The notes beneath the pieces are model-generated. The model worked only from the letters and a program-made list of their open reading frames with translations. It had not been told where the DNA came from and made no database searches. A DNA stretch of 40,642 nucleotides from a virus, in the IMG/VR virus record IMGVR_UViG_3300006046_000004, positions 1 through 40,642 of that record, one strand, 5' to 3'. Made by a program: the position numbers and the translations under genes. Numbering within the stretch: position 1 is the stretch's first letter; each line of letters begins with the position of its first letter. This document shows positions 1 through 40,642 of the stretch, in pieces.

Positions 1-90
1 CAATCCGCAACTTGCCGAATTGCAGGACAACCCCGTGCTCGCAGACCGCATTCGCACCATCGCCAAGGGCGAAAGCAATGATCCGCGCGA
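1..90. repeat. Terminal direct repeat: nt 1-90 are identical to nt 40553-40642 (closure overlap of a circular or circularly permuted genome, unit length 40552 bp)
   Basis: Base-by-base reading: both copies read caatccgcaacttgccgaattgcagg...gcaatgatccgcgcga. A reading frame runs through the junction without interruption. Confidence 0.95.
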
Positions 91-3911: not shown

Positions 3912-5681
3912 GTGTACAGTAGGCCGCCGGGTACGGACGGAATTCCTAACCTGACCATCGAGTCCACCAAATACAACGCCTACGTCGGCGACGTGGAGCA
4001 GGACCTCAACACGCCGCGGCCGATCGTGGCCGGCGGCACCGGCGCCACCACGGCCCGCGATGCCATGATCGCGCTGGGCGGCGAACTCGCCAACCAGGTG
4101 GTCACCAATTACGACAGTTTCCCGTTCGTTTCCGGCTCATTCATTTCCGACAACGCCGCCACCGCCAGCCCGCTCGACGGGTATTATTTCTCCGGCATTG
4201 CCACCGCCTACAACAACAGTTTCACCGTCCTGCATGCCTACGAGATCAACACCGGCGAGGAATTTGTGCGGGTGAAGACCACGGCCGGCTGGGGCCCGTG
4301 GACCGGCCCGCGGCTGGGCGGTGATGTCAACATCGCCAGCACCACGCCATCGACCGCATCGAACACCGGCGCGCTGACGGTCAACGGCGGGCTCGGCGTC
4401 GGGCTCGACATCTTTGCCGGCGGCAACATCCACGCCGGCACCGGCACGGTCTATCTCACCCCGACGCAGTATCTGTTCCACAACGGCACCGCGTTCAGCT
4501 TCTCCACCACGCCAGTGCAGATCACCTCGGCGGTGGACTCGACCTCGCCGACCACCGGAGCATTGACGATCGCCGGCGGACTCGGTGTCGTTGACAATGT
4601 CGTGGTCGGCGGCGACATCCACGGCGGCGACCTATTCGCCGTGCATCCGGCCTCGGCCACCACCGGGAAGCTCTATCTCGGCAACTCGAATGCCAAGTAC
4701 CTGGAGACTACTGGCTCGTTCTATCGCTTCGTCGCCGACCCGGTCGTGGTTGCATCGACAGCGTCGGCGGTGTCGCCATCCAACGCCGCGTTGATCGTCG
4801 CCGGCGGCATTGGCGTCGGTAACGACATCTCCACCGGCGGTGCCATCCGCTGCGCCAGCACCATCACGCTCGACAACGGCGGCGCCGACAGCCCGGAGTT
4901 GGTGCTCAAATCGGCCGGCTTCCCGGCCTTCAACATCGACAACTTCAATGGCACGCTGCGGTTTTTCGACACCGCCGTGCGGATGAGCATCTCGTCCAGC
5001 AATGGCGCCGTCAGCATCCCCGGTGGCATCACTGGCGACCTCCACGTTACCGGCAATGGCTATCTACAGGCGGTCGGCACCAGCGATGCCTATCAGGTCT
5101 TTGCCGACGAGACCGCCGCCACCAAGGGCTATGTCGGTTGGTTCCGCTCCAGCAACGGCGTGCGGCTGTTTAACGCCACTGCCGGCGATGGCATCATCAT
5201 CGATCCGGCCGCCAAGATTTATCTCGGCAAGGGAATATTCGGTAAAGCCGGAACCGCCGGTGCCTACGATGTCAATGCCCACAACTTCTATTGGACCGGC
5301 TCGGCCGCGCAGGCGTGGATCGACATCACCAACCTCGGCAACATCACGATCACTTGTGACTACCGCATCAAGAAGGACGTGGCCCCGCTCCGCAGCACCT
5401 GGGAGGTCGTCAAGCGCCTGCGCCCGATCACCTACACGCAGCGGGAATACACCCCGCCTGGTGCCACGCAGCCGCTGTTCGTCAATGACGACACTTGGCG
5501 CTGGGGCTTTGTCGCGCACGAACTGCAGGACACGCTGCTGCCGAGCGCGGCCAGTGGCTGGAAGGACAGTCCCACTGACATCCAGTCGCCCAACCTGCTG
5601 GCGATCGTGGCCGCGCTGACACGGGCCCTCCAAGAGGCCATGGAACGCATCGAGGCGCTGGAGGCGGCGCGTGCTCGATAA
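3912..5681 (+). CDS. Tail fibre protein with a C-terminal intramolecular-chaperone (peptidase S74-like) domain
   Basis: Conserved fibre N-terminus PRNGSGVYSRPPGTDG. The in-frame codons 3891-3911 encode IPRNGSG, so the true start may be ATT 3891, 5 nt after AGGAGG. Three to four internal repeats of type S.TGAL.V.GG.GV. The C-terminal CDYRIKKDV...WGFVAHELQ...LLAIVAALTRALQEAMERIEALE matches the S74 layout. Confidence 0.85.
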   Translation: MYSRPPGTDGIPNLTIESTKYNAYVGDVEQDLNTPRPIVAGGTGATTARDAMIALGGELANQVVTNYDSFPFVSGSFISDNAATASPLDGYYFSGIATAYNNSFTVLHAYEINTGEEFVRVKTTAGWGPWTGPRLGGDVNIASTTPSTASNTGALTVNGGLGVGLDIFAGGNIHAGTGTVYLTPTQYLFHNGTAFSFSTTPVQITSAVDSTSPTTGALTIAGGLGVVDNVVVGGDIHGGDLFAVHPASATTGKLYLGNSNAKYLETTGSFYRFVADPVVVASTASAVSPSNAALIVAGGIGVGNDISTGGAIRCASTITLDNGGADSPELVLKSAGFPAFNIDNFNGTLRFFDTAVRMSISSSNGAVSIPGGITGDLHVTGNGYLQAVGTSDAYQVFADETAATKGYVGWFRSSNGVRLFNATAGDGIIIDPAAKIYLGKGIFGKAGTAGAYDVNAHNFYWTGSAAQAWIDITNLGNITITCDYRIKKDVAPLRSTWEVVKRLRPITYTQREYTPPGATQPLFVNDDTWRWGFVAHELQDTLLPSAASGWKDSPTDIQSPNLLAIVAALTRALQEAMERIEALEAARAR

Positions 5682-6348
5682 GCCGACAGTAGAGTTGCCG
5701 CGGACATGGCGCGCACTGGCGGAGGACGTGACCGTGGTTGACGACCTGCTGCCGCCAAACACGCAGGCGCTGGTGCGAGACTTCCTACAACGGCCAGGCT
5801 GGCAGTTCGGCTGGAAGTCAGCGCGCAAGACCGATGTCTATTCGTTCTGGCACAAGCACTTTGCCGGGCATAGAAACTCCAAGAACGAACCGAAATACGA
5901 ATGCTCCGAAGAACTCTCGAAGAGCGCGCCGCTGGCGCACTGGTTCTGGGTGAACCTCAATAAGGTGGTGTTCCGCAACACGCACGCGCTCTATCGCTGC
6001 TATGCCAATGCGCAAACCTACGGCAGCGATGGCACCGTGCATACCGACAGCAAATCAGATCGCAGCTACACATGCGTGTATTACGCAAACGCCGACTGGC
6101 AGCCCAATTGGGCCGGCGAAACCGTGATATTCACGCCCGACAAATCTGACATCATCACCAGCATCTACCCGCGCCCGAACCGGCTGGCGATCTTTCGCGG
6201 AAACATGCCGCACGTCGCCCGCGGCGTCTCGCGCACCTGCCCGGTGCTGCGCGTTGTCCTCGCCTTCAAATCAGAGTTGCCCGATGATCCAGGACCAGCA
6301 CCGACACTTCCTGACGATCCAGGCGAACGCCAACAAGATCCGCCATAG
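5671..6348 (+). CDS. 2OG-Fe(II) oxygenase (prolyl-4-hydroxylase-like fold)
   Basis: HxD...H facial triad (TVHTDS ... NMPHVARGV) and a distal RVVLAFK strand. The start overlaps the tail-fibre stop. Confidence 0.7.
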   Translation: MLDKPTVELPRTWRALAEDVTVVDDLLPPNTQALVRDFLQRPGWQFGWKSARKTDVYSFWHKHFAGHRNSKNEPKYECSEELSKSAPLAHWFWVNLNKVVFRNTHALYRCYANAQTYGSDGTVHTDSKSDRSYTCVYYANADWQPNWAGETVIFTPDKSDIITSIYPRPNRLAIFRGNMPHVARGVSRTCPVLRVVLAFKSELPDDPGPAPTLPDDPGERQQDPP

Positions 6349-8528: not shown

Positions 8529-8771
8529 TCATGCATCATTTGCCGGCCGGATGAATAGGGCGAGCGCAGTCACGGCGGCAAACATCACGGCAGCCTGCAC
8601 TGCGCCCGGCCAACCGTAGCGACCGCCGTAGAATCCGACGGCCACGATGCCTCCGGCTGCAATCACGAGATCGATCCGGCGCAGGTCGTAGCGCGCCCAC
8701 ACCGGCACATTGCCGAAGCGCCCGAGCCAGCCAAAGGCATGCACCAACGGCATCGGCACCGGAATTTTCAT
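8529..8771 (-). CDS. Membrane protein (80 aa, two predicted TM helices)
   Basis: Hydrophobic segments IDLVIAAGGIVAVGFYG and AVQAAVMFAAVTALALFI. ATGA overlap with the upstream gene. Confidence 0.5.
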   Translation of the reverse strand: MKIPVPMPLVHAFGWLGRFGNVPVWARYDLRRIDLVIAAGGIVAVGFYGGRYGWPGAVQAAVMFAAVTALALFIRPANDA

Positions 8772-9061
8772 GGCTTCATCCTTCGCCGGTAGTGTGAGGA
8801 CAATCGTTGAGCTGTCAAAATGCGTTGATCGCCAGCGATTTTCACCATTTCGGCGTCGTTAAGATTTCGCAGCTCCAAATCCTTGTCAAAGGCCATGATG
8901 TGCCCACAGCCTATGCAGACGGTGATATCACCCGGGGTTGGCATTATTGTCTCGGATTCCAGACACACCGCAGCGTCGAGCGGCTTTCCACAATCCGTAC
9001 AGTGTGAGCGTTTTATTTGCATCCGGCAGTACTTGCATCCGGCAGTCCTTGCATCCGGCAT
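8768..9061 (-). CDS. Cys-rich zinc-ribbon protein (97 aa or shorter)
   Basis: CxxC pairs (CKYC, CTDC, CIGC). The start is uncertain: there is no good SD at 9061, and an in-frame ATG lies inside the third 16-bp repeat. Confidence 0.45.
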   Translation of the reverse strand: MPDARTAGCKYCRMQIKRSHCTDCGKPLDAAVCLESETIMPTPGDITVCIGCGHIMAFDKDLELRNLNDAEMVKIAGDQRILTAQRLSSHYRRRMKP

Positions 9062-9063: not shown

Positions 9064-9065
9064 CT

Positions 9066-9101
9066 CACAAAGAAACCCCCGCCTCGGTGCGGAGGCGGGG
9101 G
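9066..9101 (-). terminator. Rho-independent terminator after the anchor-protein pair
   Basis: 10-bp GC stem (9076-9085 cccccgcctc / 9092-9101 gaggcggggg) with a 6-nt loop, followed on the minus strand by TTTCTTTGTG. Confidence 0.7.
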
Positions 9102-9147
9102 CCCGGAAACGGCGGCATGGACAGGGGCGTCTGAGCCGCCGCCCCGA

Positions 9148-9723
9148 CTACGCTACGCCGTGGTTGCGCGCACGGCGCCTTTTGTTGAGACCCCACAGCC
9201 CGACCAGGGCCGCCAGGATGCCGGGGAAGCCGGCCCCGGCGATCGGGCCTGGCACCGCCACCGCGGTCGTGGTCAGGTTGCCGCCATAGCCCGAGGTGCC
9301 ACCGCCAGTGCCGGCGATGTTGAGGAAGTAATTACCGGCCGCCAGGATGGCGGAGCCGGCCAGCACCTGGCACCCGAGTGGGTTGGTCGGGCAAGCCACC
9401 GCCGCCACCAGCGGTCCCACGGCCGTATCATCGCCACCGCCAGGCAAACCATTGGCGCCTGAGTTGAACAACTGCCCGGTGAAGGCGGTGATGAAGTCAG
9501 TCGGCTGCGTGAAGTCGTTGGTGGCGCTGGCGAACGTGAGGAACTGCGAGCCGATTAGGTGGAAGGTATACTGATCGGTGAACGTCGTCCCGAGCACGCT
9601 GTTGTTGAATGCCCCGGTGGCGCTGTTGGGGTTGTTGCCCAAGTCCTTGATGATGAGCGCGTTAGCGGGAGACGCCGCCGACAACGCCAGCAGCGCCGCG
9701 ATGGGGAGTAGCATTTTTCTCAT
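9148..9723 (-). CDS. Secreted protein with a PEP-CTERM-like C-terminal anchor (191 aa)
   Basis: AAGGAGA SD. Signal peptide MRKMLLPIAALLALSAASPANA. The C-terminus AVPGPIAGAGFPGILAALVGLWGLNKRRRA gives the layout Pro motif + TM helix + Arg cluster. Confidence 0.75.
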   Translation of the reverse strand: MRKMLLPIAALLALSAASPANALIIKDLGNNPNSATGAFNNSVLGTTFTDQYTFHLIGSQFLTFASATNDFTQPTDFITAFTGQLFNSGANGLPGGGDDTAVGPLVAAVACPTNPLGCQVLAGSAILAAGNYFLNIAGTGGGTSGYGGNLTTTAVAVPGPIAGAGFPGILAALVGLWGLNKRRRARNHGVA

Positions 9724-9755
9724 TGGGAATTCTCCTTGTGAGGCCGTGGGTGGGA

Positions 9756-10517
9756 CTAAACCGGGTTGCGACGGCGCCGCTTCATCGCCAAGCCCCAGAG
9801 GGCGACCAGGCCGGCCAGGATGCCGGGGAAACCGGCCCCAGCCACCGGACCCGGCACCGCCTGCGGGCTCGGGATCGGCTGGATAAAGAAGCTGTCGGGC
9901 CCATCGTTGGCGTTCTGGATGTTCGCGAAGAAGATTAGCTTGTCGCCCAGATGAATGTCGGTGCCGAGCGAGATGTCGAAGGTCCCCAAGGTGTAGTCCG
10001 GGAACCCGGTGCCGTTGTTCTGGCTGGCGATATTCCCGGTCGTCCCGTTGATAAATGCCGACAACACCGTGTGCGTCGTCAGGTTCAACAAGAAGAACGA
10101 CTGCAACGTCTGCGGCTGATTGGTGTCGTTGGCGTCCACGCCCACCGTGAACCGCAGATTGTTGTCGCCGTTGGCAATCAGGTAATTGCGCAGGAACGTG
10201 CCGTCGTAACCGATGCCGATGGTGTTGGTGCCGGGATTGGCGCCGCCCGAGACGTTGGTCGAGAAATAGACCTCGGAGGTCTGGTTCCCGGCATTGCCAA
10301 AATCGGTGTAGCCAAACGTCGGTGACTGCTGCGGCTGGTTGGCGCCGCAGATGATGCACTGCACGTTGAGCGGCTGGTTGCCGCCGGGCACGACCGGCGT
10401 GAGCGTCAGCGTGTCAACGCCGTTGAAGCTCCAGGTCTGGCCGCCGAGGACGATGTCGGCGTGGCTGGCCATCGTCATGGCCAGGAGCATTGCGGTAGTT
10501 GCTAGCAAGCGTTTCAT
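9756..10517 (-). CDS. Secreted protein with a PEP-CTERM-like C-terminal anchor (253 aa), paralogous tail to 9148..9723
   Basis: Signal peptide MKRLLATTAMLLAMTMASHA. C-terminus AVPGPVAGAGFPGILAGLVALWGLAMKRRRRN. The internal ATG at 10517 is preferred over the track start at 10574. Confidence 0.75.
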   Translation of the reverse strand: MKRLLATTAMLLAMTMASHADIVLGGQTWSFNGVDTLTLTPVVPGGNQPLNVQCIICGANQPQQSPTFGYTDFGNAGNQTSEVYFSTNVSGGANPGTNTIGIGYDGTFLRNYLIANGDNNLRFTVGVDANDTNQPQTLQSFFLLNLTTHTVLSAFINGTTGNIASQNNGTGFPDYTLGTFDISLGTDIHLGDKLIFFANIQNANDGPDSFFIQPIPSPQAVPGPVAGAGFPGILAGLVALWGLAMKRRRRNPV

Positions 10518-10592: not shown

Positions 10593-12059
10593 TTACTGGA
10601 CTCCCTGATAACGGTCGGCCGCCGCCAGCGCGCCCATCGCCGGCACCGCCCCGGCGAGGCCGTACTTGCGCATGATCTGGACGCGGCTGATCGGGCTTTG
10701 TGGGTTGAAAACCACGTAGTTGCTGGTCCTTGCATTGTTCCTGACATTCGCGATGTCCTTGGCCAAGTTATCCGCAGAGATTTGCAGTGCCGCGCGCCGG
10801 CTTCCTATTGAGCGACCGTACTCGTCGACGCCGCCCTCCAGCAATTTCATCAGCCGGGAATGCTCAGCCTCGATCATCGGCAGGTCTGCGCGCGAGCGCG
10901 ATCCCTGGTCCAGGTAGCGGATGCCGGGAATGCCGGCCTCGCGCAAAATTTCAGAAGCCGCCGCTTTATCGTTCCATGATCCAGCATGAGATCGAGCAAT
11001 GTTCTCATATAATCCTTTTCCAAATACAGAAATCGGAAACGGGTCAACGCCAGGGGCGGAGTATTGTTTTTCAAGTGGCACTTTGAATTGTTCTGCAACC
11101 CCTCGGACTTGCTGAGACTGCCCACTCAACGGCTTATCCCAATCCAAAAACTGCTCGGGCTTGGCGTGAATGCCGACCTCGTAGGTGCGCGGGCCGACCG
11201 GCTTGCCGCTTTCGAGCAGAGAAAGCTCATGTTGTCTCTGCGCTAGCATTTTTTCAGCATATGCGCGTCGCTGGCCCTGCTCCAATAGTGATGGATATTG
11301 AGATGGGATATTAGGCAACTCCTGCGTCCAATCCCTGATGTCCGTCTTGGTGCCGGCAATTGCGTTGTCACGATTGAACTCATGCAATCGCAATCGCTCG
11401 GCCGCGGCTCTTTCGGCCGGCGGAAATCTTTCTAAAAATTGCTTCCAATATTCCCCGCCCTGCCCGGACACCGCCGGGTTCTCGGCGACGTAAATCCCGT
11501 GCCCATACATCTGAAAGCCCTCGCCGGTCCCGATCTTGGAGAGGTCGAACCGATCGAAATCGTGCGGCGAGGAGTGATAGGCGAGGATCGGCTCGGCCAC
11601 GCTGCCGATCGGCCGCTCGGTGGGCTGAATGATCTTGCTCCCAGCGCCCATGGTCACAGCGCCACGCTGGCCAAAGCGGAACGGGTCGAACGTCATCCCG
11701 AACGCCGTCTGCGGCGCCCAGTCCCCCACCTTCTCATTCAGGTCCCGCAGCCGTTGTTCGTCGCCCTCGGACCACTGTCCCGGCACCTCCGGCTTGAAAT
11801 TAGCCACGGCATACGGCACCGCGAACGGGTCATGGGCTTTGGCGATATCGCCCATGCGGCCGCCGATCTCGGCGAGGTTGCCGCCCCAGCCCGGCAGCGG
11901 CAGCGGCAGCGGCAAGGGCCGCGCGTTGATGTCGGCGGCAGCCGCTACCCCGCGTGACCATGCCCCTTCGTCAGGTGGTTCCTGCCAGCCCGGATAGGCC
12001 CCGCGCGTAGGGTCAAGATTTGCCAGTGACCCCATGTAATAGTCGTCACGGGCCATCAC
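10593..12059 (-). CDS. Large accessory protein with a candidate PARP-like (H-Y-x) ADP-ribosyltransferase fold, similar to ART domains of phage/plasmid polyvalent proteins
   Basis: AYHSSPHDFDRF...GTGEGFQMYGHGIYVAENP supplies the H and Y elements. REAGIPGIRYLD and SNYVVFNP resemble the distal strands. The N-terminus has a PLPLPLPLP tract, and the central part is visibly AT-richer. Confidence 0.4.
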   Translation of the reverse strand: MMARDDYYMGSLANLDPTRGAYPGWQEPPDEGAWSRGVAAAADINARPLPLPLPLPGWGGNLAEIGGRMGDIAKAHDPFAVPYAVANFKPEVPGQWSEGDEQRLRDLNEKVGDWAPQTAFGMTFDPFRFGQRGAVTMGAGSKIIQPTERPIGSVAEPILAYHSSPHDFDRFDLSKIGTGEGFQMYGHGIYVAENPAVSGQGGEYWKQFLERFPPAERAAAERLRLHEFNRDNAIAGTKTDIRDWTQELPNIPSQYPSLLEQGQRRAYAEKMLAQRQHELSLLESGKPVGPRTYEVGIHAKPEQFLDWDKPLSGQSQQVRGVAEQFKVPLEKQYSAPGVDPFPISVFGKGLYENIARSHAGSWNDKAAASEILREAGIPGIRYLDQGSRSRADLPMIEAEHSRLMKLLEGGVDEYGRSIGSRRAALQISADNLAKDIANVRNNARTSNYVVFNPQSPISRVQIMRKYGLAGAVPAMGALAAADRYQGVQ

Positions 12060-28760: not shown

Positions 28761-28970
28761 ATGGTCCTCGAGCAAGCCGGCAAGGTCGCCACTGGCAGCA
28801 TCGACGCCTTGAAGTCGCAGCCGCTCATGCTCGCGCTGGTGCTGCTGCAGGTGTTCGTCCTGGCCGCCGTGCTATACTCAAGCATCAACCGCCAGACCTC
28901 GATCGACAAGCAGTTCACCCATGTGTTCGAGCTGCTGGCAGCCTGCATGAAAGGCCAGACGGTGCCATGA
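28761..28970 (+). CDS. Holin-like single-pass membrane protein (69 aa)
   Basis: TM helix LMLALVLLQVFVLAAVLY. ATGA-coupled to the following wall-hydrolase-like gene. Confidence 0.5.
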   Translation: MVLEQAGKVATGSIDALKSQPLMLALVLLQVFVLAAVLYSSINRQTSIDKQFTHVFELLAACMKGQTVP

Positions 28971-29470
28971 CGAGCATGAGGCTAGTTGGAAAATGTTCCA
29001 GCTTCGGCGGACCCGAAGACATGGGTGTCTCGCCATCAGAAGGGCTCGCATTTATTTTTGAAGTCTCCGACGCCCCCCACCTGTTCCTCGACGAGCAGCC
29101 GCCCGGCACCACCGGCCTAGCGCGCCGGCTCGATCCGGCGCAGTTCTACATCGCCTGCCGCTGGGATTATGACGAATATCCCAAGGAATCGCTGCTGCAG
29201 CACATGGCCCTGGTGCGCGCCCCGAGCACTGGCCTGCAATTTGCGGCGAGCCCTGCAGATTGGGGTCCAAATTCCAACACTGGCCGCGTGGCCGACATCA
29301 GCCCCGGCCTGATGGACGCGCTCGGCATCACCACCGATGACGATGTCGAGGTGATCTATCCAGCCCCCGCCGACGTCAACCGCCCCACCCCGACCGTGTG
29401 GGTTGCCGTCACCGTGCCTGATGGCGTAAATGTTGCCCTGACGGTCAACGGCACGCAGGTGTTCCCGTGA
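28967..29470 (+). CDS. Putative endolysin, RlpA/DPBB (barwin-like) lytic-transglycosylase-type (167 aa)
   Basis: SSFGGPEDMGVSPSEGLA...YIACRWDY...DWGPNSNTGRVADISPGLMDALGITTDD resembles double-psi beta-barrel wall hydrolases. Only the C-terminal part of track ORF 28499..29470 is used. Confidence 0.5.
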   Translation: MTSMRLVGKCSSFGGPEDMGVSPSEGLAFIFEVSDAPHLFLDEQPPGTTGLARRLDPAQFYIACRWDYDEYPKESLLQHMALVRAPSTGLQFAASPADWGPNSNTGRVADISPGLMDALGITTDDDVEVIYPAPADVNRPTPTVWVAVTVPDGVNVALTVNGTQVFP

Positions 29471-31314: not shown

Positions 31315-32352
31315 GTGCCCAATATCGTCCCGTCTACCGCAACCGCCTATCAGCAAATCTTGTCGATGGCGCTGGAGGACCGCTCGCCCGAATACCAGGA
31401 CCTCGTGTCCAACAACAACGCGCTGCTCGCTGTCACCAAGCGCAAGGGCAACTGGCAGACCTATAGCGGCCCGCGCATCAGACAGACCCTGCAAATCGCC
31501 AAGCAACTTGTGCAGTGGTACTCCGGCTACGACCAACTGGTGAACCCGGCGATCGATTTGTTCAACGACGCGGTGTTCGACCCGAAGATGTGCGTCGTGC
31601 CAATCGTGCTGTCGTACCAAGAGATTCTCAACAACGAGGGCGAGCAACAGCTCATCGACGTGTTGGACGCCTACCTCGAGGCTGCCGAGCGCGCCCTCGA
31701 GGACGCCATGGACGTGGCGATTTACAGCGACGGCACGGCCAACGGCGGCAAGCAGTTGACTGGCCTTGCGACTGCACTGCCGACCATTGCCGGTACCACC
31801 ACCGGCATCTATGGCGGCATCGATCGCAACACCGCGGTGATCTGGCAGCCAAAGGCCTACGACGTGCAGACCCAGACCCTCATACCAGCGACCACGCAAG
31901 TCACCTCAACCTCGATCCGGCCGCTCCTCAACGCCATCATGACCAAAAACTCGCGCGGCCGCGATTATGCCGACCTGATCGTCATGAGCGCCGAGCACTA
32001 TGCTGCCTATGACGCCGCCACCATCGCCATCCAGCGCCAGACCAACGAGACGTCATTGGGAAAACTGGGCTTCAGCGCGCTCGAATATATCGGCGGCGGC
32101 AAGCGCGCGGAGATCGTGCTGGACGGCGGCATCGGCAGCAACATGCCGGCGAACACCACGTTCGGGCTCAACACCGACTCGTTCCGCATCCGCTACCACC
32201 CGCAGCGCAACTTCGACAAGCTGTTCCCCGGTGACGGGATGCAACCGATCGATAAGGACGCGGTGGCCCAGTTCATAGGCTTCATGGGAGAAATGACGGT
32301 CACTAATCCGATGTACTCGTGGAGACTTTACGACAGCAACCCGGCCGCATAG
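31315..32352 (+). CDS. Major capsid protein (345 aa, GTG start)
   Basis: Size and position after the scaffold gene, with composition typical of HK97-fold coat proteins of T7-like podoviruses. Confidence 0.7.
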   Translation: MPNIVPSTATAYQQILSMALEDRSPEYQDLVSNNNALLAVTKRKGNWQTYSGPRIRQTLQIAKQLVQWYSGYDQLVNPAIDLFNDAVFDPKMCVVPIVLSYQEILNNEGEQQLIDVLDAYLEAAERALEDAMDVAIYSDGTANGGKQLTGLATALPTIAGTTTGIYGGIDRNTAVIWQPKAYDVQTQTLIPATTQVTSTSIRPLLNAIMTKNSRGRDYADLIVMSAEHYAAYDAATIAIQRQTNETSLGKLGFSALEYIGGGKRAEIVLDGGIGSNMPANTTFGLNTDSFRIRYHPQRNFDKLFPGDGMQPIDKDAVAQFIGFMGEMTVTNPMYSWRLYDSNPAA

Positions 32353-32398
32353 CCATTGCAAGAATTCCTCCATGCTGCTATCCCACGAGGATCGTAAC

Positions 32399-32947
32399 AT
32401 GGAGGGTACCATGGCTCCGCCAAGGACTGTGACGCTGCCGACGCAAGAGGAATTACGGAAGCTGTTCCACTACGAGGCGAAAACGGGACGGATTTTCTGG
32501 AAGGCCAGACCTGGAGTGACCGGATGGAACACGCGCTATGCAGGAAAGGAAGCGTTCCTGTGTCTCACCAATGGACACAAGCGCGGGATGCTGTTCCGCA
32601 ACAGCGTCTATGCCCATCGCGTCATCTGGAAAATGGTGACCGGCGAAGACCCTCCTGAAATCGATCACATCGACGGAAACCCGTTGAATAACTCTTGGAG
32701 AAATCTGCGTGTTGCCGTCGGTGGTGCAAATCAAAAGAACTGCGAACTTCGTAACGACAACAAGTCAGGCCATGTTGGTGTTGTGCGCCGTGGCGATCGG
32801 TGGATTGCCCAAATCGGAGTGAATGGCACGACTAAGCATATCGGCATTTACGACAGCGTAGGACTAGCGATCGCTGCGCGCAAAAGAGCGCAGGAAGAAT
32901 ACGGTTTCCATCCCCGACATGGGCGAGCACCGTGGAAGGGTACCTAA
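32399..32947 (+). CDS. HNH homing endonuclease with an AP2 DNA-binding domain
   Basis: HRVIWKMVTGEDPPEIDHIDGNPLNNSWRNLR is an HNH_3 motif. SGHVGVVRRGDRWIAQIGVNGTTKHIGIYDSVGLAIAARKRAQEEYG is an AP2 domain. The gene is AT-richer than the capsid gene. GAGGA lies 8 nt upstream of ATG 32399. Confidence 0.85.
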   Translation: MEGTMAPPRTVTLPTQEELRKLFHYEAKTGRIFWKARPGVTGWNTRYAGKEAFLCLTNGHKRGMLFRNSVYAHRVIWKMVTGEDPPEIDHIDGNPLNNSWRNLRVAVGGANQKNCELRNDNKSGHVGVVRRGDRWIAQIGVNGTTKHIGIYDSVGLAIAARKRAQEEYGFHPRHGRAPWKGT

Positions 32948-40049: not shown

Positions 40050-40642
40050 ATGTCCGACACCTACGATCCAACGACGCCGCGGCCGCCAGGGTCCATCTTC
40101 TGGGGCAATGCCAAGCCAGGCTCACCGCTGAGCTACGAGGCGCTACAGACCCGACGCAAGATCGCCGAGGCGCTGCTGGGGCAACGCTCGCCGTATCCCA
40201 GGAACGTGGGCGAGGGAATAGCCTCGCTCGGCGAGAGTATCGGCGGGGCCATACAATTATCCCGGCTCGAAGAGCAGGAGCAACAGAGTGCAGCGCGCGA
40301 GGCTGGCGTTCGCAAAGGGCTGTTCGGAGGCGAGCCGACGCCGCCGACTACAGCCGCGACACCCGCGCCCGACGAGATCGCCGCTGGAGCGCCGCGCGAG
40401 GCCGGACCGCCCGTCAGCAACGTCGTTCCTAGCAATGTGCCACTCACTCCAGCCTTCACCGGGCCGGGCTATGCGCGGCCAGGTGGTCGCGATGCCATCG
40501 CCACACAAATGGCTGGCGTTCCGCTGCCACCGCCGCGGCCAGTCTATGACCGCAATCCGCAACTTGCCGAATTGCAGGACAACCCCGTGCTCGCAGACCG
40601 CATTCGCACCATCGCCAAGGGCGAAAGCAATGATCCGCGCGA
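40050..40642 (+). CDS. 5' part of the junction-spanning virion protein gene (continues at nt 1; see 1..1822)
   Basis: ATG 40050 directly follows the TAA at 40047-40049. The frame is open to the window end, and its last 89 nt are the same codons as 2..90. Confidence 0.6.
   Translation, partial: MSDTYDPTTPRPPGSIFWGNAKPGSPLSYEALQTRRKIAEALLGQRSPYPRNVGEGIASLGESIGGAIQLSRLEEQEQQSAAREAGVRKGLFGGEPTPPTTAATPAPDEIAAGAPREAGPPVSNVVPSNVPLTPAFTGPGYARPGGRDAIATQMAGVPLPPPRPVYDRNPQLAELQDNPVLADRIRTIAKGESNDPR
40553..40642. repeat. Second copy of the 90-bp terminal overlap (identical to 1-90)
   Basis: Direct comparison of the two ends. Confidence 0.95.

Follow-up and report, generated by a model that had tools for sequence, protein, structure and literature searches.

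The C-terminal sorting signals LPXTG, PEP-CTERM, GlyGly-CTERM and MYXO-CTERM each led to a dedicated envelope-processing enzyme. Moron and exclusion proteins of phages (lambda bor and lom; T5 Llp, Cor, Ltp) are anchored as lipoproteins, as β-barrels or via N-terminal helices, and to our knowledge none of them uses a C-terminal tail of the PEP-CTERM class. Here we analyzed the IMG/VR virus record IMGVR_UViG_3300006046_000004, whose entire 40,642 nucleotides (nt) we call the window, and in it two adjacent minus-strand genes, A and B, with nearly the same C-terminus. A sequence-only reading of the window had described the pair as a phage-borne cassette of secreted proteins with a PEP-CTERM-like sorting tail. 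Its observations hold in every particular, and its interpretation is supported in part. A and B are very probably exported, tail-anchored proteins with a host-type tail, and this tail is an uncatalogued new variant of the PEP-CTERM class.

Two unrelated bodies with one tail

Open reading frames (ORFs), AlphaFold2 models and profile comparison agree that both genes encode a Sec signal peptide, different β-rich bodies and near-identical tails. The models, built with 65-68 homologues, reach a predicted local distance difference test score of 81.5 for A and 87.7 for B. Each consists of an N-terminal helix, a β-sandwich and one long C-terminal helix, with the transmembrane (TM) helix at residues 229-250 in A and 166-188 in B. 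The bodies are unrelated, as a profile-profile alignment of A and B covers the last 34 columns only (97.8% probability, E 7e-13). At the DNA level the two tails form a 113-nt direct repeat with 73% identity. In both genes the tail reads VPGPxAGAGFPGIL, followed by the TM helix and KRRR, and the protein ends 3-8 residues past the Arg cluster. Proline motif, TM helix and basic cluster at the extreme C-terminus, combined with an N-terminal signal peptide, give A and B the tripartite PEP-CTERM-class architecture that the sequence-only reading had recognized. Signal-peptide-like N-termini were likewise found in 116 of 134 viral tail proteins, a pattern-defined set among the IMG/VR matches listed.

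For the fold of A, Foldseek returned no significant match in the PDB or BFVD. The fold of B resembles sandwiches of the PPC, collagen-binding and C-CPE type (E about 6e-5, TM-score of at most 0.67 on the target); a weak structural match of B to the lysozyme inhibitor PliG was judged uninformative. Homologues of A keep an invariant CxxC (C54/C57) and a GPDSFF motif, and the B family keeps C111/C118. These invariant Cys pairs in both bodies fit oxidative folding outside the cytoplasm. The body of B belongs with the FxDxF family of PEP-CTERM proteins, matching model NF038126 over positions 5-145 of 165 (E 2.6e-9). Its score of 37.5 bits stays below the curated cut-off of 50 because its tail adds nothing to the score. 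Phage-borne, PEP-tailed homologues that are 54-56% identical to B pass the same cut-off (P0101 with 69.3 and P0048 with 80.0 bits).

The tail and the curated sorting domains

The proposed assignment to an exosortase-type signal was not borne out by direct search. No curated sorting-domain hidden Markov model (HMM) in NCBIfam release 20 passes on the window proteins or their isolated tails, and Pfam gives nothing on A, B or the isolated tails. The sub-threshold scores are 15.6 bits for MYXO-CTERM (cut-off 20), 13.8 for IPTL-CTERM (20.5) and 10.3 for PEP-CTERM (TIGR02595/PF07589, 16). The last score is that of the A tail; the B tail gives no match to this model, host-type tails also stay below its cut-off, and PEP-tailed homologues, as a positive control, reach 20-27.6 bits. 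Neither VPLPA-CTERM (TIGR03370, cut-off 25.35) nor LPXTG (TIGR01167) matches the window tails. Host-type tails are borderline on LPXTG with 15.9-17.5 bits against 15.9. Since these matches are confined to the TM and basic section of the model (positions 14-34) and include no LPXTG motif, a sortase anchor was rejected.

In both window tails the Glu of Pro-Glu-Pro is replaced by Gly, giving V-P-G-P. Both motif prolines are kept and are invariant or nearly so (P222/P224 in A, P158/P160 in B). In A homologues picked by their body, V221, P222, P224, G227, A228, G229, P231 and G232 are conserved to at least 90%. By its residues the tail appears to be a Glu-less relative of PEP-CTERM and VPLPA-CTERM with the VPxP core in common. 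The use of the tail by hosts, its interchange with curated domains, its genomic context and the family of the B body make it more than an arbitrary anchor.

The same tail on host proteins

We searched GTDB contigs, one genome per species, with a back-translated DNA pattern for VPGP[x][AV]GAG[x]PG. This retrieved 93 host loci, mostly from Bradyrhizobium and metagenome-assembled genomes (MAGs) of soil alphaproteobacteria; the taxa include B. centrosematis, Bradyrhizobium sp. McL0615, Methylocella, Roseiarcus and Pseudolabrys. Of 103 host instances, about 95 have the motif 29-37 residues ahead of the stop, on diverse bodies, 41 of which form singleton clusters. Single genomes carry several copies: at least four in B. 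centrosematis, at least three in Bradyrhizobium sp. McL0615, five in each of two Bradyrhizobium MAGs and at least eight tail loci in MAG MFD00031.bin.2.178. Outside the search pattern, host tails conserve L13 (92%), A16 (75%), GG18-19, W23 (75%) and RRR25-27. An HMM built from host chromosomal tails only scored B with 42.7 bits (E 1.4e-12) and A with 32.1 bits (E 2.6e-9), the next of the 782 window ORFs reaching 6.8. As it picks exactly the two window genes, chance is no explanation of the resemblance.

Substrates of exosortases are classically encoded in exopolysaccharide (EPS) loci. Such a locus in B. guangxiense and B. centrosematis has two tail protein genes at its center, among genes for a priming sugar transferase (Bac_transf), GT4s, an Asn synthase-type amidotransferase, a Wza-type Poly_export protein, an epimerase and an AT3 acyltransferase. 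A PEP-CTERM orthologue of a host tail protein lies in a locus with EpsI and DUF642 PEP-CTERM proteins.

The two tail genes of the EPS loci (L227, B. guangxiense CP022219.1, 1157756-1178607; L026, B. centrosematis) are divergently placed and encode proteins of 283 and 207-209 amino acids (aa), the shorter one with the variant tail VPGPTVGGG. Another product of the same EPS locus is a secreted 735-aa protein, possibly a glycanase, which matches no family and is rich in Thr/Ser in an N-terminal stretch.

Tails change type on conserved bodies

Tail type is swapped at the same position in the body families of A and B and in a third family of host chromosomal proteins of about 283 aa, and homologues picked by body keep V-P-x-P and vary the remainder of the tail. 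Many B-family members end in VPEPSTWAMMLLGF...RRR, the VPEPSTWAMM type, and score 41.1 bits on PEPxxWA-CTERM (cut-off 35) and 27.6 on TIGR02595 (16), which P0101 also passes. Some A-family members end in VPLPATVWLFG...RRRKK and exceed the TIGR03370 cut-off with 35.9 and 26.5 bits. Homologues of both bodies thus carry PEP-CTERM or VPLPA-CTERM tails above curated cut-offs where A and B carry theirs, which ties the window tails to the class the sequence-only reading had named. The host family of about 283 aa displays three tail types directly after a conserved ...WAMTCANDVIQGQV end: Bradyrhizobium members have VPGP-GAGLPGL, Phenylobacterium and others PEPxxWA (VPEPSTWA) or TPLPAALP.

In IMG/VR the B family comprises about 14 VPGP-GAG, three PEP, 12 (V/T)PLP and five VPIPG tails. 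Phage loci with PEP tails have a GC content of 47-49% and those with VPGP tails of 59-66%, indicating that the tail tracks the phage and not the body. Judged by their scores, phage-borne PEP-CTERM proteins above curated cut-offs exist, and B of the window presents itself as their VPGP-tailed counterpart. Exchange also occurs within the cassette. P0121, a metagenomic homologue 98% identical to gene A, combines an A body with a tail identical to that of gene B of the window, suggesting that the 113-nt repeat lets the two genes of the cassette swap tails, through gene conversion or recombination.

A two-slot cassette in soil phages

The first and last 90 nt of the window (1-90 and 40553-40642) are identical, which shows that the genome, of about 40,552 bp, is complete and either terminally redundant or closed to a circle. 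With genes for a portal, a large terminase, an SU10-type capsid, a tail fibre, ERF and YqaJ, it is a complete podovirus genome of about 40.5 kb. Its host is probably a soil bacterium of the Hyphomicrobiales. The nearest cultured capsids are those of Rhizobium phage RHph_I3_18 (57%) and Brucella podoviruses (37%). The RHph_I3_18 integrase, used as a tblastn query, has no counterpart in the window. In RHph_I3_18 itself, terminase, portal, scaffold and capsid genes are contiguous, without the cassette region.

At E ≤ 1e-3 we found 606 metagenomic homologues of A and 280 of B, and all inspected contexts were viral. The tail pattern occurs in at least 120 IMG/VR loci. Among the IMG/VR matches listed, the host-tail HMM detects at least 138 tail-bearing ORFs, which group into about six families specific to phages (A 41, C 36, D 13, B 10, E 10 and F 9 members), and only two clusters are common to host proteins and the 134 viral ORFs. 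Again among the matches listed, 20 of 118 loci contain tandem pairs of tail genes (among them L113, L114, L125, L134, L147, L148, L169, L179, L181, L183, L188, L194, L211, L219, L222, L223, L225). The pairs follow an apparent slot rule, with A, C, D or another gene upstream and B, E, F or another downstream. The combinations A-E, C-B, C-E, C-F and D-B were found, and the A-B pair of the window is another. Tandem pairs with a slot rule suggest that the two products act together.

The genomic surroundings vary. A B gene lies between an Amidase_3 endolysin and a repressor in L008, a Mu/P2-like temperate phage with an integrase; a B gene is paired with an A-like gene in an unrelated phage, an ArdC/UvrD-bearing element; the C-B cassette of L183 is about 1.1 kb from an integrase; and genes for PEP-tailed B proteins adjoin a phage lysozyme (L010) or sit in a PolA phage. 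Terminator-type hairpins are about 6-fold enriched after viral tail genes. Of the features of a moron, the cassette has its own terminator and its presence varies among related phages. The accessory setting claimed by the sequence-only reading stands in so far as the cassette is part of a variable stretch absent from RHph_I3_18; it does not for A in related 43-kb phages, where the gene is syntenic after the portal gene.

This last position raises the question of a virion or head-assembly component. A directly follows the portal gene, and precedes genes for a 683-aa protein and for TIG-domain proteins, in six related contigs of 15-44 kb; in the window it is within the terminase-portal transcription block. 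RHph_I3_18, however, has the same core genes without A, and members of the A family are found among the early genes of a different, unrelated phage. Particles of tailed phages assemble in the cytoplasm, which a protein with a Sec signal and a C-terminal TM anchor would leave. Neither family has homologues among cultured phages or matches virion protein families, and A has no PHROG or structural match to virion proteins; the routine virion homologues that would have refuted the sequence-only reading did not appear. We regard a role of the A product in the particle or its assembly as extremely improbable.

A second alternative is a lysis accessory, a unimolecular or two-component spanin analogue whose proteins span the periplasm and help to disrupt the envelope. 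Signal peptide and C-terminal TM domain resemble the topology of a u-spanin, the genes come as a pair, and B adjoins the endolysin in L008 and is near the lysozyme in L010. Moreover, five A homologues (P0174, P0175, P0188, P0197, P0235) have a lipobox (L-[IVA]-S-C-G, for example LISCG or LVSCG) in place of the signal-peptidase-I site and would be lipoproteins with a C-terminal TM tail, a u-spanin-like topology. A and B of the window have no lipobox, however, and most homologues carry signal-peptidase-I sites. Both bodies are globular disulfide sandwiches instead of coiled coils, the family of the B body has chromosomal members too (FxDxF PEP-CTERM proteins), some cassettes adjoin an integrase or repressor, and in the window about 19 kb separate the cassette from the candidate lysis genes (28761-29470, plus strand). 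Of the hallmarks of a unimolecular spanin only the C-terminal TM domain was found; lipobox and location in a lysis cassette were absent. A spanin-like function is thus very unlikely. Of the candidate lysis genes, the first (28761-28970) encodes a 69-aa protein with a single TM segment; the ORF after it matches the Amidase_3-bearing protein of L008 in its C-terminal part, with 65% identity over 130 aa.

In tblastn searches of 50,697 GenBank phages, A, B and the tail found nothing, and B and the host-type tail found nothing among PLSDB plasmids; in both searches the short, low-complexity tail queries were perhaps masked by the BLAST filter. In the accessible literature linking PEP-CTERM or exosortases to phages, prophages or Bradyrhizobium, we found neither phage-borne cargo nor such a tail described; the nearest reports go no further than host PEP-CTERM genes or, in a Dehalococcoides element, a PEP-CTERM domain. 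The arrangement had been called unusual, and with regard to accessible literature and cultured phages this is so. In soil viromes it is common, with more than 130 genes in IMG/VR.

Sorting signal or anchor

The sequence-only reading had proposed to look in candidate host genomes for both the tail and an exosortase. The tail is indeed present in high-GC soil alphaproteobacteria; the exosortase was not found beside the tail genes examined. Within about 10 kb of the tail genes inspected we detected no exosortase, rhombosortase or other candidate enzyme, and no Exosortase_EpsH lies within 10 kb on either side of the B. guangxiense EPS-locus tail genes. The 93 host loci contain 23 ORFs with at least five predicted TM segments. 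The 15 of these that were examined are permeases, MFS, EamA and AcrB proteins, an M50 protease, AT3, a histidine kinase and a sugar transferase, and were rejected as the sorting enzyme. So was the 735-aa EPS-locus neighbor, which from its sequence is secreted and without membrane spans. That a host sorting enzyme processes the tails of A and B is a proposition we rate at slightly less than even.

A and B may instead be held by a plain tail anchor that is never cleaved. Its Gly/Pro-rich helix would pack against other helices, perhaps in an A-B heterodimer, and the proteins would be inner-membrane-tethered periplasmic modules that, like Ltp, Imm or HK97 gp15, block for example DNA ejection by superinfecting phages. 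Superinfection-exclusion proteins typically have such tethered domains in the periplasm. Each tail is modeled as a single TM helix, and tandem pairs, near-identical tails and the tail exchange between partners in P0121 fit paired TM helices. The failure of all sorting-domain models and the lack of a sorting enzyme near the tail genes inspected also favor an anchor. Against it stands the periplasmic-face motif VPGP..GAG.PG, which is conserved far beyond the needs of an anchor and common to dozens of unrelated host proteins. Homologues, furthermore, carry curated, enzyme-processed sorting domains at the same position, and host tail genes are found in EPS loci, as PEP-CTERM genes are. On balance a plain anchor seems unlikely to us, but it deserves to be kept in mind.

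In the view towards which we lean, A and B are a mobile, moron-like cassette, and a PEP-CTERM-like sorting pathway of the host takes up their products, which alter the host envelope. Sec would export each product via its cleavable signal peptide, and the body would fold in the periplasm into a disulfide-containing β-sandwich resembling a binding module. Both proteins would be retained in the inner membrane by the C-terminal helix, with the Arg cluster on the cytoplasmic side. In this scheme the tail (VPGP-x2-GAG-x-PG-L... W/L-RRRR) would be a phage copy of the C-terminal domain that occurs on many secreted Bradyrhizobium-type proteins, including those of EPS loci. A cognate host sorting enzyme may recognize the VPGP face, cleave the protein and pass its body to the envelope or matrix. 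The pair would change the surface seen by phages through superinfection exclusion, receptor masking or a blocked re-adsorption that protects progeny; an exclusion-type role in particular is possible but doubtful. An envelope-modifying moron fits the positions near lysis, immunity and integrase genes in temperate phages, the own terminator and the phage-specific bodies. The final location and biological role given here for A and B are those that we infer.

Several points weigh against this view. Apart from the failure of the curated models, the loss of the motif Glu and the missing enzyme, the window tail subtype GAGFPGI...LWGL.KRRR is rare in the sampled host tails, where the F occurs in 3%. 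The conserved Gly/Pro-rich helix could serve TM-helix packing and not enzyme recognition. The synteny of A in the related 43-kb phages means that it is not a sporadic accessory gene, and no sigma-70-type promoter was found upstream of A in a scan for that promoter type only, which leaves its moron status incomplete. Function is not directly indicated either, as PHROGs and PADLOC match neither A, B nor their neighbors and the folds are generic binding sandwiches.

Cassette features and neighboring genes

The coordinates of the cassette are collected in Table 1. The start of gene A was set at the ATG at 10517 because homologues begin with MKRLL, and a longer GTG-started version was rejected for the same reason. 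A 403-aa GTG ORF at 9148..10359 was rejected as an out-of-frame extension of gene B. Only 32 nt separate A and B, which makes co-transcription probable. The strong terminator that had been placed at 9066-9101 after the pair was recovered as a hairpin with a U-rich tract; its stem has 10 bp of G+C plus two G-U pairs, the loop has 6 nt, and the 101-nt region folds with -54.9 kcal/mol (z = -2.3).

Table 1 Features of the A-B cassette (positions refer to the window)
Feature	Position	Strand	Basis
Gene A, 253 aa; predicted exported jelly-roll β-sandwich with VPGP-GAGxPG tail; upstream slot	9756..10517	-	ORF list and homologue starts
Gene B, 191 aa; predicted exported 9-strand β-sandwich with the same tail; downstream slot; FxDxF PEP-CTERM body family	9148..9723	-	ORF list
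Signal peptide of A, MKRLLATTAMLLAMTMASHA; cleavage predicted between SHA and D	10458..10517	-	Sequence; AlphaFold2 helix 2-14; N-terminus conserved in homologues
Signal peptide of B, MRKMLLPIAALLALSAASPANA; cleavage predicted between ANA and L	9658..9723	-	Sequence; AlphaFold2 helix 5-15
Tail of A, AVPGPVAGAGFPGILAGLVALWGLAMKRRRRNPV; VPxP motif, Gly/Pro-rich TM helix, Arg cluster	9759..9860	-	Host-tail HMM, AlphaFold2
Tail of B, AVPGPIAGAGFPGILAALVGLWGLNKRRRARNHGVA	9151..9258	-	Host-tail HMM, AlphaFold2
Shine-Dalgarno sequence AAGGAGA of gene B, 7 nt before ATG	9731..9737	-	Sequence
Intrinsic terminator; stem GGCCCCCGCCUC, loop CGCACC, stem GAGGCGGGGGUU, then U-rich UCUUUGUG	~9064..9103	-	Folding

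Directly downstream of the cassette terminator, at 9014-9061, lie three tandem 16-nt units (minus strand, CTGCCGGATGCAAGNA three times). They overlap the 5' end of an ORF for a 97-aa Cys-rich, Zn-ribbon-like protein (8768-9061, minus strand) and, as a repeat array, could be an operator or an iteron-like protein-binding site. The upstream neighbor of A (10593-12059, minus strand) encodes a 488-aa protein without Pfam, PHROG or PADLOC match. It has no counterpart in the related phage L001, where the 683-aa protein comes after A. Elsewhere in the window, an HNH endonuclease gene (32372-32947, plus strand) is inserted between the major capsid gene (31315-32352) and further structural genes. A gene of the 2OG-Fe(II) oxygenase superfamily (5671-6348, plus strand) directly follows the tail-fibre gene, where it is an unusual accessory enzyme.

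Implications and comparison with described systems

The tail has no NCBIfam release 20 or Pfam model, yet it is found on many proteins of the agriculturally important genus Bradyrhizobium, which points to a missing enzyme. We tentatively propose that VPGP-GAGxPG marks a separate Bradyrhizobium-type sorting system with its own enzyme. Phages with at least six cargo families and a two-slot cassette (A/C/D plus B/E/F) might hijack this system to rebuild the host surface, swapping tails (VPGP, PEP, VPLPA) to match the host machinery. If tails are matched in this way, tail type could serve as a marker for host prediction and as a sequence marker that ties uncultured soil phages to their hosts. We found no published account of phage cargo for such a pathway, which here would be a widespread, modular trait of soil phages. 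Envelope effectors encoded by phages would thereby gain a further class, possibly one of exclusion factors with an influence on phage-rhizobium ecology, and the trait would offer a handle on the role of PEP-CTERM-class proteins.

Unimolecular spanins of the T1 gp11 type are generally known to combine an N-terminal export signal, a C-terminal TM domain and a β-rich periplasmic part, as A and B do. Unlike them, A and B have no lipobox, lie outside the lysis cassette, contain larger globular disulfide domains and carry a tail common to non-phage host proteins. The likeness to phage morons and lysogenic-conversion genes such as lambda bor and lom or T5 Llp, Cor, Ltp is closer in genetic terms: these are also small, exported, non-essential-looking genes with their own terminator, at variable sites (after a lysis gene, beside integrase or repressor) and shuffled among unrelated phages. 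The window cassette differs from typical morons in that the sigma-70-type scan found no promoter and tblastn detected no integrase in the genome.

With PEP-CTERM/exosortase sorting (TIGR02595, PF07589; PEPxxWA-CTERM NF035944, VPLPA-CTERM TIGR03370), the cassette shares V-P-x-P at the outer membrane face, a helix of about 20 residues, an Arg/Lys cluster and the signal peptide. The tail also has many paralogous carriers per host genome, some of them in exopolysaccharide loci. It differs by Gly in place of Glu, by the extra, nearly invariant GAG-x-PG-L segment, by its failure in the curated models and by the lack of a linked exosortase. The carriers here are phage genes of largely phage-specific families, and in contrast to NF038126, the close relatives detected for B are on phage contigs and not on chromosomes.

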